The position numbers were made by a program, and so were the translations under genes. From a virus, in the IMG/VR virus record IMGVR_UViG_3300029923_000051, positions 1 through 39,499 of that record: DNA of 39,499 nt. One strand, written 5' to 3'. This document shows, one piece after another, positions 18,786-31,953 of this stretch. Under the pieces are notes generated by a model. It worked only from the letters and a program-made list of their open reading frames with translations, was not told the origin of the DNA and searched no databases. Each line of letters begins with the position of its first letter. Within the stretch, counting starts at the first letter, position 1.

Positions 18786-19412
18786 ATGAAATACATTAAA
18801 AAATTTGAAAGTTCAATTAAAAAAATGATTTTGATTGGCGAAAATTTGACTGAGTTGCCTGAATTACCAGATACTCTTATGAAATTGCAATGTTCTGATA
18901 ATAAATTGACATCATTATCTAATTTACCTAATACATTAAATGAAATATATTGTAACAATAATATGATAATTGAAATTTCTAAATTACCAGAATTTTTAAC
19001 TGATTTTGCTTGCTCATATAATAAATTAAAAAAATTGCCAAATTTGCCTAATACATTAAAAGAACTTTTTTGCTGTGATAATAAACTAACAGAATTACCT
19101 ATTCTGCCAGATAACTTAAGAATTCTTAGCTGTGATAATAATAATTTAAATGAATTACCGATTTTACCAAAAAAATTAACATTATTATCTTGCTCTGGAA
19201 ACAATTTAGAGAAATTGCCTGAATTACCAGATGGCTTATTGGATTTATATTGTTATAATAATAATTTAAAAGAATTACCTATATTACCAATTACATTGAA
19301 ATCGTTGGCTTGTTCTGGTAATAATTTACCATATACTAATTTAAAAGAATATGATGAGTGGTTAGAAATAAATCATCCTGATATTTTTATGACTAGAAAA
19401 TTTAACATATAA
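18786..19412 (+). CDS. LPX-type leucine-rich repeat protein (about 9 repeats of LPxLPxxLxxLxCxxNxLxx) with cassette termini MKYIKKFES...KFNI
   Basis: 20-residue LRRs of the YopM/IpaH-like class. Conserved C-terminal cap NNLPYTNLKEYDEWLEINHP. Confidence 0.8.
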   Translation: MKYIKKFESSIKKMILIGENLTELPELPDTLMKLQCSDNKLTSLSNLPNTLNEIYCNNNMIIEISKLPEFLTDFACSYNKLKKLPNLPNTLKELFCCDNKLTELPILPDNLRILSCDNNNLNELPILPKKLTLLSCSGNNLEKLPELPDGLLDLYCYNNNLKELPILPITLKSLACSGNNLPYTNLKEYDEWLEINHPDIFMTRKFNI

Positions 19413-19413
19413 T

Positions 19414-19980
19414 ATGAAATACATTAAAAAATTTGAAAATTCAAATATAGAATTGAATGATAATCATAAAAATTTAACTATATTGCATAAATTACCAAGA
19501 AATTTAGTAAAATTGGAATGCTCAGATAATAAATTGATTAATTTACCTACGTTACCAAAAACATTAGAATATTTAGATTGTTCTGGTAATAAATTAATTA
19601 AATTGCCTGATATACCAGATTCCTGTAAAAAATTGTATTGTTATAATAATAAATTAACTAAGTTGCCTAAATTGTCACAGAATTTAAAAATTATATCTTG
19701 CGCAGACAATAAATTAACAGAATTATCAGAGTTACCTGAATCATTAGATAAATTATATTGTGGTGAAAATAAATTGACAACTTTACCTAATTTACCAAGC
19801 AAATTAACTGTATTGTCTTGTAGATTTAATAAATTAACTGAGTTGCCTATTTTACCAGAAACAATAACAACATTGTATTGTGAAGGAAATGATTTAGGAT
19901 ATTCTGATTTGGATGGTTATTATGATTGGCTGGAAATTAATCATCCTGAAGTAGTTGATGCAAGTAAATTCAATATATAA
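19414..19980 (+). CDS. LPX-type LRR protein with cassette termini
   Basis: as above. Confidence 0.8.
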   Translation: MKYIKKFENSNIELNDNHKNLTILHKLPRNLVKLECSDNKLINLPTLPKTLEYLDCSGNKLIKLPDIPDSCKKLYCYNNKLTKLPKLSQNLKIISCADNKLTELSELPESLDKLYCGENKLTTLPNLPSKLTVLSCRFNKLTELPILPETITTLYCEGNDLGYSDLDGYYDWLEINHPEVVDASKFNI

Positions 19981-19983
19981 AAA

Positions 19984-20379
19984 TTATAAATTGAATTTGT
20001 CTGCTGTTAATATCATTTCTAATTCTTCAATTGTTTTACCAAATGCTTTTATATTTGTTTCATTTAGATGAATAACCTTATTTTTTTTAGAACCTAAATT
20101 AAAATAATCCCTAATTATATCTGGAATATTTTCATATTCAAAATAATTTGATATTTCAGGATGTTTGTTTGATATGTCATATGATACATAATATGTTCTT
20201 AAAGTCTTTCCGTTTACTACTACTTTTCCTCCATAATTTCTTATTCTACCAATATTATTAGTTAAAAAGTCATAAATATCTCCTCCTAAATTGTAATTAC
20301 TATTATCATATTCAAAAATAATATAATCATTTATTTTTGGCTCATTATTTGTGTTTTCATTGAATCTTTCTATTTTCAT
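19984..20379 (-). CDS. MK-KFNI cassette family, A-like (start at MKIERFNEN)
   Basis: Internal Met chosen because it restores the family N-terminus and tight spacing. Confidence 0.65.
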   Translation of the reverse strand: MKIERFNENTNNEPKINDYIIFEYDNSNYNLGGDIYDFLTNNIGRIRNYGGKVVVNGKTLRTYYVSYDISNKHPEISNYFEYENIPDIIRDYFNLGSKKNKVIHLNETNIKAFGKTIEELEMILTADKFNL

Positions 20380-20381
20380 TA

Positions 20382-20699
20382 TTATATGTTGAATTTTCTG
20401 GATTGTAAAATAGTTTCTAAATCTTCTATGTTGTCTGACCAACATAATATTTCTTTCCTTGAAAAAGTAGTTGTACCTTTATTGAAATATTTTTCTGTAT
20501 CTTCTGGTATGTTTTCATATTGAACTACAAATGGATATTTATCTCCTCTATTAAATTCTATGCAAATACCAATATGACTATTAACAAAAGTTCTAGATTT
20601 AAATGCTCCAACGTAATCATTAGATAAAATGTATTCTCCTACCATTGGAAAGTCTTTTTTATCAGACATTAATTTTTCAAACTCCTTTATATACTTCAT
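20382..20699 (-). CDS. MK-KFNI cassette family, A-like (VQYENIPED)
   Basis: family termini. Confidence 0.7.
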   Translation of the reverse strand: MKYIKEFEKLMSDKKDFPMVGEYILSNDYVGAFKSRTFVNSHIGICIEFNRGDKYPFVVQYENIPEDTEKYFNKGTTTFSRKEILCWSDNIEDLETILQSRKFNI

Positions 20700-20701
20700 T
20701 G

Positions 20702-29686: not shown

Positions 29687-29687
29687 A

Positions 29688-30437
29688 TTATATGTTAAAT
29701 TTTTTAGACATTCCCTGAGGAGTTTTAGAAAACCATTTCTTATATTCATCTAAATTATCATAAGGTAAATTATTATCAGAGCAATTCAATGTTATTAATG
29801 TATCAGGTAACTCTGGTAGTTCTTTCAAATTATTATTTGAACAAGATAAATATCTTAATGACTTAGGTATAAATAAAATTTCATTTAAAAGATTATATGA
29901 ACAATATAATTCTTCTAATTTATCAGGTAAATGTGGTAAATTTGTTAAATTATTATATGAACAATCCAATGATTCTATTGTATTGGGTAATTTAGGTATC
30001 TCTATTAAATGATTTTTGTTGCAATATAAATATTCTAATTTTCCGGGTAATTCTGGTAATTCATTCAATTTATTATTAGAACAATATAATTCTAATAAAG
30101 TATCAGGTAATTTTGGTAACTCAGATATATTATTTTTAAAGCAATCTAAATATTCTAATCTTATTGGTAATTCTGGTAAATCCATTAACTTATTATTACC
30201 AGAATAAAGTATTCTTAAATTTTTAGGTAACTCAGGAAAGATTTCAAATTTATTGTTACTAAAATTCAAATTTAATAATGTACTAGGCAATTTTGGTAAA
30301 TATGTCAAATTATTGTCTTTACATACCAAATGTTCTAAGCCTTCATATAACTCTGGTAATTCAGATAACCCGCTAAAAGAATAATCCAACTCTGTTTCAA
30401 CACTCTCAACACTCTCAAATTTCTTTATATACTTCAT
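29688..30437 (-). CDS. LPX-type LRR protein with cassette termini
   Basis: as above. Confidence 0.8.
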   Translation of the reverse strand: MKYIKKFESVESVETELDYSFSGLSELPELYEGLEHLVCKDNNLTYLPKLPSTLLNLNFSNNKFEIFPELPKNLRILYSGNNKLMDLPELPIRLEYLDCFKNNISELPKLPDTLLELYCSNNKLNELPELPGKLEYLYCNKNHLIEIPKLPNTIESLDCSYNNLTNLPHLPDKLEELYCSYNLLNEILFIPKSLRYLSCSNNNLKELPELPDTLITLNCSDNNLPYDNLDEYKKWFSKTPQGMSKKFNI

Positions 30438-30438
30438 A

Positions 30439-31125
30439 TTATATGTTAAATTTTCTAGCCATGGCTATATCTGGAAATTTATTATCAAACCATATTTGGT
30501 ATTGTTCTAAATTTTCATAAGGTAAATCATTACCCAAACAATTTAAATATATTAATGACATAGGTAACTCAGGCAACTCAGTTAATTTGTTATTTGAACA
30601 ATCTAATTCTCTTAATGTACTAGGTAAATCAGGTAATAATTCTAACTTATTAAAATTACAGTGTAAATGTTTTAACGTATTAGGTAAATCAGGTAATGAT
30701 TCTAATTTATTACCAGAACAATAAAAATATACTAATGAATCAGGTAACTCAGGTAATGAAGATAATTCATTATTTGAACAATATATTTCTCTTATATAAT
30801 GAGGTAATTCTGGTAATGAAATTAAACTATTTGACATACACCTCATCATTTTCAAACTATTAGGTAACTCAGGTAATGATTCTAATTTATTAAAATTACA
30901 AAGTAAATTTATTAAAGTATCAGGCAATTCTGGTAATGATTCTAATTTATTGCTGTTACAATTTAACACTTCTAATGTGCTTGGCAACTTAGGTAAATAT
31001 TTTAAATCATTATAAAAACATGATAATTTTATTAATCCATCAGGTAATTCAGGAATTTCTTTTAATCCTGCTATGGAATAATCTAAATCTTTTATTATTG
31101 TATAATATTTGTTTATGTATTTCAT
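30439..31125 (-). CDS. LPX-type LRR protein (N-term MKYINKYY, C-term KFNI)
   Basis: as above. Confidence 0.8.
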   Translation of the reverse strand: MKYINKYYTIIKDLDYSIAGLKEIPELPDGLIKLSCFYNDLKYLPKLPSTLEVLNCNSNKLESLPELPDTLINLLCNFNKLESLPELPNSLKMMRCMSNSLISLPELPHYIREIYCSNNELSSLPELPDSLVYFYCSGNKLESLPDLPNTLKHLHCNFNKLELLPDLPSTLRELDCSNNKLTELPELPMSLIYLNCLGNDLPYENLEQYQIWFDNKFPDIAMARKFNI

Positions 31126-31132
31126 TTATATT

Positions 31133-31507
31133 TTATATGTTAAATTTTTTAATCATTGAATTAAAGTACCATTCTTTGTATCCTTCTAAACTATCATAAG
31201 GTAAATGATTTCCTTTACAATATAATAATGTTAATGTATCAGGTAACTTTGGTAGTATTTTTAATTCATTGTAACCACAATCTAAATATTCTAATTTATC
31301 AGGAAGTTTTGGTAAAGTTTCTAATTTGTTACAACTACAATCTAAATATATTAATGAATCAGGTAACTCAGGTAGCTCAGCCAATCTATTATTATAACAA
31401 TATAAATGTTTCAACGTATCAGGTAACTCTTCTCTTAGTTCAGTTAATCCTCTATTAGACTTATATAAAAATTTAATTTCTTTCTCAAAAATTTTAATGT
31501 GTTTCAT
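31133..31507 (-). CDS. short LPX-type LRR protein
   Basis: as above. Confidence 0.75.
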   Translation of the reverse strand: MKHIKIFEKEIKFLYKSNRGLTELREELPDTLKHLYCYNNRLAELPELPDSLIYLDCSCNKLETLPKLPDKLEYLDCGYNELKILPKLPDTLTLLYCKGNHLPYDSLEGYKEWYFNSMIKKFNI

Positions 31508-31953
31508 ATGTTAAATTTATTTGCATTAACTACCTCAGGATGATTAATATTCAGCCATTCATTATATTCCGCCAGATTTTTAAAAGGAGCATCATTTCCT
31601 TTGCAAAATAATTCTTTTAATGTGACTGGTAATATTATAGGACATTTAATTAATATATTATAATCAAATGATAAATATTCTAATCTACTTGGTAACTCTG
31701 TTAATTTTTCTAAATTATTATCATAACATGACAAAATTCTTAATGATTTTGGTAACTCAGGTAACTTAGTTAATTTATTATCTGAACAATACAATTCTTC
31801 TAGCCCATTTGGCAACTCAGGTAGTTCAGTTAATCTATTGCCATAACAGTATAATTTAATTAATGTTTTAGGTAATTTTGGTAATGTGCCTAATCCGTTA
31901 GCATTATAATATAATTCTTTCACTACTTTTTCAAACATTTTAATGTATTTCAT
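31504..31953 (-). CDS. LPX-type LRR protein
   Basis: as above. Confidence 0.75.
   Translation of the reverse strand: MKYIKMFEKVVKELYYNANGLGTLPKLPKTLIKLYCYGNRLTELPELPNGLEELYCSDNKLTKLPELPKSLRILSCYDNNLEKLTELPSRLEYLSFDYNILIKCPIILPVTLKELFCKGNDAPFKNLAEYNEWLNINHPEVVNANKFNI

Follow-up and report, generated by a model that had tools for sequence, protein, structure and literature searches.

The internal proteins of phage T4 carry a common short start, IPII and IPIII beginning MKTYQEFIAE and IPI beginning MKTFKEF. In T4 the first 10 residues constitute the capsid-targeting sequence (CTS), within which targeting depends chiefly on residues 4 and 7 and gp21 processing on residues 8 and 10, and T4 Alt has propeptides at both of its ends (PMC9026906); among T-even phages the internal proteins are diverse except for the CTS (PMC3012670). 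Here we describe arrays of small proteins that share two terminal peptides, one N-terminal (the N-tag) and one C-terminal (the C-tag), encoded in a 39,499-nt stretch of viral DNA (positions 1 to 39,499 of IMG/VR record IMGVR_UViG_3300029923_000051, below called the window). The window has a G+C content of 22% and densely packed, small, co-oriented open reading frames (ORFs), and judged by its larger genes it comes from a very AT-rich huge tailed phage. The tags behave as peptide address labels, and possibly serve to load proteins into the phage head.

Other described systems share parts of this arrangement. In encapsulins and microcompartments, short terminal peptides (C-terminal in encapsulins) that are common to unrelated cargo dock it inside a shell, which in encapsulins has the HK97 phage-capsid fold; their motif is a different one, the peptides here stand at both ends and in a phage, and to our knowledge K-[FY]-N-[IL] is unlike the known loading peptides of either system. 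Bacterial effector repertoires, such as those with phytoplasma SVM signal peptides and those of SspH2, SlrP and the Legionella ankyrin (Ank) proteins, likewise combine a conserved short signal with variable bodies, and effectors of type III and type IV secretion systems (T3SS and T4SS) show the same 20-residue SspH2/SlrP-type leucine-rich repeats (LRR) and ankyrin repeats; however, the proteins here have no NEL ligase and no Sec-type signal, are phage-encoded, and bear a tag that is virus-specific. The "genomic accordions" of large DNA viruses are similar in their tandem diverged paralogues, lineage-specific expansion and repeat-protein bodies, but those families share a body, whereas here different bodies share termini.

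We defined the N-tag as M-K-x-[IL]-K-x-[FY]-E or its variant MK[IV]x[KR]FNE (in the window, M-K-[YH]-[IL]-K-x-[FY]-E and M-K-[IV]-x-[KR]-F-N-E-S), and the C-tag as [STA]-x-K-[FY]-N-[ILV]-COOH, for which K-[FY]-N-[ILMV] was used in a census of all 93 window ORFs of at least 60 residues. The C-tag ends 39 of the 93, against 0.03 expected from the frequency of internal 4-mers (4 in 12,433; binomial P ~1e-110), and the N-tag begins 33 of them, as compared with none of 155 internal Met positions; 30 window ORFs have both. A further 17 tagged genes follow directly past the right window end on the same contig. The tagged genes of the window, in which "class 3" denotes unassigned bodies of ~120 residues, are arranged as follows.

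13606..17244, minus strand: head-to-tail array of 10 tagged genes, eight of class 3 and two SH3-like (14372-14698 and 16528-16845), all ending KFN[IL]
18213..19980, plus strand: array of four tagged genes, SH3-like at 18213-18455 and 18452-18784 and LRR at 18786-19412 and 19414-19980
19398..19437, plus strand: example junction, AAA TTT AAC ATA TAA T ATG AAA TAC ATT AAA AAA TTT GAA, which encodes K-F-N-I-stop and then M-K-Y-I-K-K-F-E of the next gene
19984..25694, minus strand: array of 16 tagged genes, SH3-like, class 3 and ankyrin; in the SH3-like member at 21046-21402 the C-tag has decayed to ...NNNTL
24570..25034, minus strand: ankyrin-repeat protein with a GTG start, N-tag (M)KYLKTFEN and C-tag YKFNI
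27244..27558, plus strand: solitary SH3-like member, MKYIKQYEE ... NKFNL, with no adjacent downstream start codon
27970..28966, minus strand: array of three SH3-like members
29060..31953, minus strand: array of five LRR genes, all with both tags, with 20-residue LPxLPxxLxxLxCxxNxL repeats of the SspH2/SlrP type
38371..39057, minus strand: eighth LRR gene, both tags, its true start being the internal ATG at 39057
39054..39467, minus strand: GNAT acetyltransferase with the N-tag only (MKYIKSYEKK ... IKKLKS), embedded in an array

A sequence-only reading of this DNA had noticed that eight LRR proteins and the ankyrin protein begin MKYIKKFE and end KFNI and that a GNAT acetyltransferase begins similarly; this observation is real, and much broader than stated. 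The named proteins exist and Pfam bears out their folds (LRR_4 in 18786-19412 and 29688-30437, Ank in 24570-25034 and Acetyltransf_1, the GNAT domain, in 39054-39467). MKYIKKFE holds as a consensus: it is exact in five of the eight LRR proteins, the others starting MKYINKYY, MKHIKIFE and MKYIKMFE, and in the ORFs at 29060 and 38371 the tag begins at an internal ATG. Seven LRR proteins do end KFNI and one ends KFNL, while the ankyrin protein has the proposed end but not the proposed start, and the GNAT has an N-tag but no C-tag. The range given for these genes, 18786-31953, was too narrow, as the eighth LRR gene and the GNAT fall outside it. The GNAT does lie within an array, because tagged genes continue past the right window end, and the sequence upstream of it encodes the ...NKFNI-stop of another family member.

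When the tags were trimmed off, the bodies fell into at least four kinds without detectable similarity to one another, comprising ~18 SH3-like barrels, 12 class 3 proteins, eight LRR proteins of the IpaH/SspH type and one ankyrin protein. A profile-profile comparison of class 3 with the SH3-like class gave a probability of 0.3%, a sequence search of PDB with class 3 gave no match, and neither family has an entry in Pfam, PHROGs or NCBIfam. The LRR region resembles those of the T3SS effectors SspH2 and SlrP (E-values 1e-29 to 3e-31), and it scores far under the curated full-length cut-offs; these proteins (124–249 residues) stop right after the LRR and have no NEL E3-ligase domain. The SH3-like and class 3 proteins have a longer common C-terminal helix, [ED][ED][LI]ExI[LI]xxxKFN[IL], of which the LRR and ankyrin proteins share only ~6 C-terminal residues. 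Conservation on such dissimilar bodies supports the earlier proposal that the ends serve as functional signals whatever fold they are attached to.

Comparison with other genomes, which the sequence-only reading had called for, showed the termini to be conserved in orthologues and paralogues alike. With a profile search we identified 110 homologues, on metagenome contigs as long as 711 kb, and nearly all kept both tags despite body identities of 25–50%. One contig, L001, is syntenic with the window (22 orthologue pairs, 46–80% identity), and between these orthologues the N-tag switches variant, e.g., MKYIKEFEKL versus MKIFRFNEKL. Another, the 531-kb contig L004, has 47 tandem members in 20 kb, all of which, including an ankyrin protein, end KYNL as opposed to the KFN[IL] of the window. 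Most L004 bodies (26 of 32) are closest to paralogues of their own genome; a few, including the ankyrin, best match the window lineage. As the L004 ankyrin is nearest to the window lineage yet ends KYNL, the C-tag variant is genome-specific across folds, and the ankyrin orthologues of L001, L004 and L014 each have the tags in their own genome's version. A tblastn search of 50,697 GenBank phage records with one SH3-like and one LRR member gave no match, so at that sensitivity the family is not in deposited phage genomes. Literature searches with the motif strings and on LRR, ankyrin or multigene families of huge phages returned nothing relevant, and we found no publication describing the tags. 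We also observed four N-tagged ORFs in CAIWBA010000291.1 (L448, L419), a 254-kb contig binned in an "uncultured Bacteroidetes" metagenome-assembled genome; this is probably a huge-phage contig, and the binning is a weak hint of a Bacteroidetes host.

The two tags differ in their structural setting and can occur apart. In an AlphaFold (AF2) model of an LRR protein with an overall predicted local distance difference test score (pLDDT) of 91.7, N-tag residues 1-8 scored below 50, and in a model of an SH3-like protein residues 1-10 averaged 53; the fold starts at residues 11-19 in these models and the N-tag is modelled as low-confidence coil. The N-tag is thus predicted to be a disordered extension outside the fold on two unrelated folds, which agrees with the fold independence proposed earlier, while the C-tag terminates the last predicted helix in both models. 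We considered a structural clasp pairing the N and C termini and rejected it, since the N-tag is disordered in both models. Judged from its sequence, a helical N-tag would have its hydrophobic positions 3, 4 and 7 (in longer versions also 10 and 11) along a single face. Of 77 N-tags, 70 have [IL] at position 4 and all have [FY] at position 7, with K2 in 69 and E8 in 64.

Homologues of the GNAT retain MKYIK.[YF]E and never have KFNI. In the uncultured huge phage LR756500 the LRR proteins start MKYIKEYEEF and end NADDFGFFDN, and other N-tagged proteins of this phage include a DUF2201 metallopeptidase/VWA protein, an ATP-grasp protein and a PNK 3'-phosphatase. A DNA pattern search for M-K-Y-I-K-x-[FY]-[ED] gave >169 matches in IMG/VR viral contigs; among the matches listed, 149 start complete ORFs of at least 50 residues, 85 with a C-tag and 64 with unrelated ends, the latter typically being MKYIKLFE[NDEQ]F[IVL]xE. 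N-tag and C-tag are therefore separable. The same pattern found 122 matches, mostly chance or unrelated conserved proteins, in 596 Gb of bacterial and archaeal genomes; from these counts it follows that the N-tag is virus-specific and not a by-product of host translation preferences.

Set beside the T4 CTS, the N-tag has much in common with it. Both are starts of about 10 residues that open with MK and have their key hydrophobic residues at positions 4 and 7 (here MKYIKKFE and MKYIKLFENFINE), with M1, K2, a hydrophobic residue at 4, K or Q at 5 and F at 7 in common, and the longer N-tag, ...FE-x-F-[IV]-x-E, resembles the ...QEFIAE of T4. As in T4, the tag stands on otherwise unrelated, fast-evolving proteins, and marking at both ends has a parallel in the two propeptides of Alt. 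Phages with this tag also encode T4-type head proteins, namely a gp20-type portal, a gp21/S77 protease and a gp23-type capsid protein: in LR756500 a gp20-like portal adjoins a Peptidase_S77 protease, Portal_T4 of L070 and L028 has pairs of SH3-like genes with both tags immediately upstream of it in the same orientation (in L070, Portal_T4 scored 214 bits and Peptidase_S77 31.5 bits), and in L139 a Gp23-type capsid protein lies beside N-tagged genes.

Based on this analogy, we propose that the N-tag is a T4-CTS-like prohead-targeting peptide, that the C-tag is a second, lineage-specific docking motif, and that the repertoire of binder proteins is head cargo, a reading to which we give a probability of roughly 0.4. 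The N-tag would act as an amphipathic N-terminal peptide that docks cargo onto the scaffold core of the prohead, and the arrays would encode a diversified, binder-type repertoire for packaging into the head and delivery along with the DNA. As a docking or retention motif, the C-tag would be recognised by a common partner, which would explain why every fold bears its genome's variant (KFN[IL] here, KYNL in L004). The arrays themselves may have been built by tandem duplication and exchange at the conserved ends.

Several differences from T4 weigh against this proposal. T4 has a handful of cargo proteins, whereas one contig here has at least 55 candidates and L004 has its 47, and we know of no precedent for the at least 100 cargo species per genome that the proposal would entail. 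The invariant C-tag has no T4 counterpart. The likeness of the N-tag to the CTS covers ~5 of 7 pattern positions, and the peptide is short and biased in composition. The (L/I)-x-E cleavage site is absent from most both-tag members: [LIVMF]xE occurs at residues 6-8 in only 8 of 66 both-tag MKYIK-type members, with no enrichment downstream, as compared with 38 of 61 N-tag-only proteins, and because of this, proteolytic removal of the tag is doubtful for the both-tag family. Most both-tag MKYIK-type members have K or T at position 6, and the MK[IV]x[KR]FNE variant has F-N-E. The bodies here are binder folds (LRR, ankyrin and SH3-like), and their packaging into the virion is a prediction from sequence and analogy. 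The portal, S77 and gp23 genes are not in the window, and the link to its lineage is indirect, through L070 and L028. Finally, small genes in such dense arrays are reminiscent of the early regions used for host takeover, while head cargo needs late expression.

The following other features of the window bear on the alternatives or adjoin the arrays.

141-1697, plus strand: seven tandem genes of ~75 residues, MFKVGD...KLNQLxKCSK, with a GD+V+C motif like that of the SH3-like class
2910-5369, minus strand: 819-residue protein with MVP shoulder, vault-repeat and SPFH/Band-7 domains
13092..13616, plus strand: 174-residue protein that begins like an N-tag (MNRLKRFES) but lacks the C-tag; the orthologue in L001 begins MNRLKMFED
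32034-38280, minus strand: three paralogous tail-fibre-like proteins (627, 612 and 799 residues) with weak T4_gp9_10_N matches

The sequence-only reading had allowed that the termini might be forced by DNA-level signals at the gene junctions, such as a promoter, translational coupling or recombination; we took this to include RNA-level signals and coupling in a host that lacks Shine-Dalgarno sequences. Where genes abut, the last base of a final codon is indeed fixed and codons made of A and U only (K, F, N, I, L and Y) are favoured, AAATATATA-like leaders precede the first genes of arrays and are conserved between the window and L001, and a junction of ~40 nt could promote unequal crossing-over. 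A genuinely DNA-forced terminus is even present in the window, as neighbouring MFKVGD...KCSK genes overlap by 13 nt out of frame, AAATGTTCAAAGTAG encoding both KCSK-stop and the MFKV of the next gene; this family is a contrast case to the tags. Codon counts over 119 family genes point the opposite way for the C-tag: its Asn codons are 63 AAT and 56 AAC against a background of 919 and 122 (AAC 47% versus 12%), and its Phe codons are 50 TTT and 21 TTC against 451 and 63, so that third positions vary more than elsewhere and C-ending codons are enriched. As the amino acids are invariant while the third positions are less constrained than background, conservation is at the peptide level. F and Y as well as I and L interchange, A/U-equivalent residues never take the place of Asn or of the aromatic residue, and in L004 different DNA (AAATATAATTTATGA) encodes the same peptide. 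All seven array-end genes without a following gene keep K-F-N-[IL], with codons differing in each, the junctions (TAA-N(1-2)-ATG or an ATGA overlap) put a constraint on nothing but the final codon's last base, and matches to sigma-70-type promoters are at chance level (229 versus 220). The tags are thus selected as peptides and not as DNA; a junction signal is largely refuted already and we consider it highly improbable. Selection for A/U-richness, considered as a source of the K/F/N/I/Y/L composition, was rejected because of the C-ending codons enriched in the tag. Least likely of all is the other suggestion of that reading, an N-terminal export signal and a C-terminal sorting tag read by the host's secretion machinery, which would send the proteins out of the cell or to the envelope: LRR bodies of the SspH2/SlrP type, like ankyrin bodies, typify secreted bacterial effectors and short terminal signals do serve some secretion systems, but the N-tag is, from its sequence, charged and amphipathic with neither a hydrophobic core nor twin arginines, and it is found essentially on viral contigs only and is nearly absent from cellular proteins, which would be unexpected for a signal read by the host. 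At 4–6 residues the C-tag is also far too short for the C-terminal sorting domain of the type IX secretion system (T9SS), which has 70–100 residues.

Two further explanations accept the tags as peptides. In one, a single ancestral gene kept its terminal caps or helices while new bodies were inserted, folding needs and gene conversion, and no signal, maintaining the ends. The sequence-only reading had preferred signals to family history, and fold independence favours that choice, yet the arrays are tandem duplications, so history counts as well. The SH3-like and class 3 proteins share their longer C-terminal helix, the C-tag ends a predicted helix, and the own-genome similarity of the L004 members fits lineage-specific expansion or gene conversion, by which the tags would also be homogenised. 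Nevertheless, we judge this explanation unlikely: the N-tag is modelled as disordered and unpacked in two different folds, the LRR and ankyrin proteins have only those few C-terminal residues in common with the small classes, the N-tag occurs alone on unrelated enzymes of other phages, its flavour switches between orthologues, and gene conversion is disfavoured as a cause because DNA identity at the tags is not raised. A serious rival, possible in our view though we lean against it, is that the tags are peptide signals for a shared partner other than the prohead; candidates are a phage-built compartment (e.g., a vault-like shell that the adjacent MVP-like protein would form), a chaperone or an unfoldase, an N- or C-degron for timed degradation, or head-to-tail association of the members through contact of N-tag and C-tag. 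The evidence for protein-level, fold-independent and virus-specific tags fits such a partner equally well, as does the scarcity of T4-type cleavage motifs, and in the window, L001 and LR756500 alike, 4–10 kb separate an MVP-shoulder/SPFH protein from tagged arrays. Among the scanned neighbours we found no match to an encapsulin or bacterial microcompartment shell, the MVP-like protein being the only shell candidate nearby. The C-tag, F/Y-x-I/L-COOH, has what we take to be the shape of a class II PDZ or protease-recognition C-terminus. However, no partner emerged, known vault cargo relies on a ~160-residue INT domain and not on a short peptide, and an aromatic covariation between N-tag and C-tag (odds ratio 4.4) is confounded by lineage and was not used as evidence. 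What favours the head is that the N-tag matches the T4 CTS in position and pattern and that family genes are placed shortly upstream of portal and protease.

Several observations concern the surroundings of the tagged arrays. A leader is conserved between window positions 17245-17345 and L001 positions 9521-9620, consisting of a terminator hairpin followed by TTAAATATATAG 5–6 nt before the ATG, and could be a phage promoter, from which transcripts would have a very short leader or none. At 27953-27988, a hairpin of 16 bp that resembles a terminator has the KFNL codons of the gene at 27970-28305 (minus strand) as one arm, and an inverted repeat at 19966-20000 is made of the KFN[IL] codons of the convergent genes 19414-19980 (plus) and 19984-20379 (minus). 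The tagged arrays are interrupted at 25742-27135 (minus strand) by three untagged tandem paralogues of 148–165 residues (M..KEELSKWF...SCY...), further copies of which lie past the window end (L252 623-1991). Two untagged paralogues of 120 and 123 residues are located between tagged arrays at 17341-18081 (minus strand), one with an internal ...EEKFNIKIIV like a displaced C-tag. A second terminal motif, IE[NK]Y[LI]R.KK[LI].K[LI] plus a few residues, ends at least 10 proteins at 6966-12781 (minus strand) whose differing N-terminal parts are membrane-spanning or coiled-coil; in one protein (12494-12781) the IE[NK]Y[LI]R motif is near the N-terminus instead. The tail-fibre-like proteins share the N-terminus MSKQTINIGTYPNDGTGDNLRDSF and have collagen-like GTSG runs and long arrays of short NSIGSxF-type repeats, the 799-residue protein having an additional Fib_succ_major domain. 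Relatives of the 819-residue MVP/SPFH protein in the phage collection were limited to those of LR756500, LR756501 and LR756503 (50–53% identity), uncultured huge phages of 462–735 kb. The Peptidase_S77 prohead protease of LR756500 (226725-228623; L146:36725-38623, minus strand) has a C-terminal extension of ~400 residues, which is possibly a fused scaffold, and there are >5,000 proteins like it in metagenomes.

If the tags are targeting peptides, they would provide a sequence rule by which to predict the packaged and injected proteins of huge phages, none of these phages having been cultured. A tenth or more of a huge-phage genome might then be given to tagged binder proteins, which would change views of host takeover by such phages, and the two very short, portable tags could be tried for loading foreign proteins into large capsids. 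In a bolder form of the head-cargo proposal, in our view doubtful, a clade of T4-type huge phages would have an address code in which an ancient CTS-like N-tag and a lineage-specific C-tag are the two parts, and this code would load at least 100 diversified binders (SH3-like, LRR and ankyrin) and enzymes into the capsid or into a phage-built vault-like (MVP) compartment, to be delivered with the genome. Such a code, if true, would give phages an equivalent of bacterial effector arsenals, at a scale undescribed for a bacterial virus.

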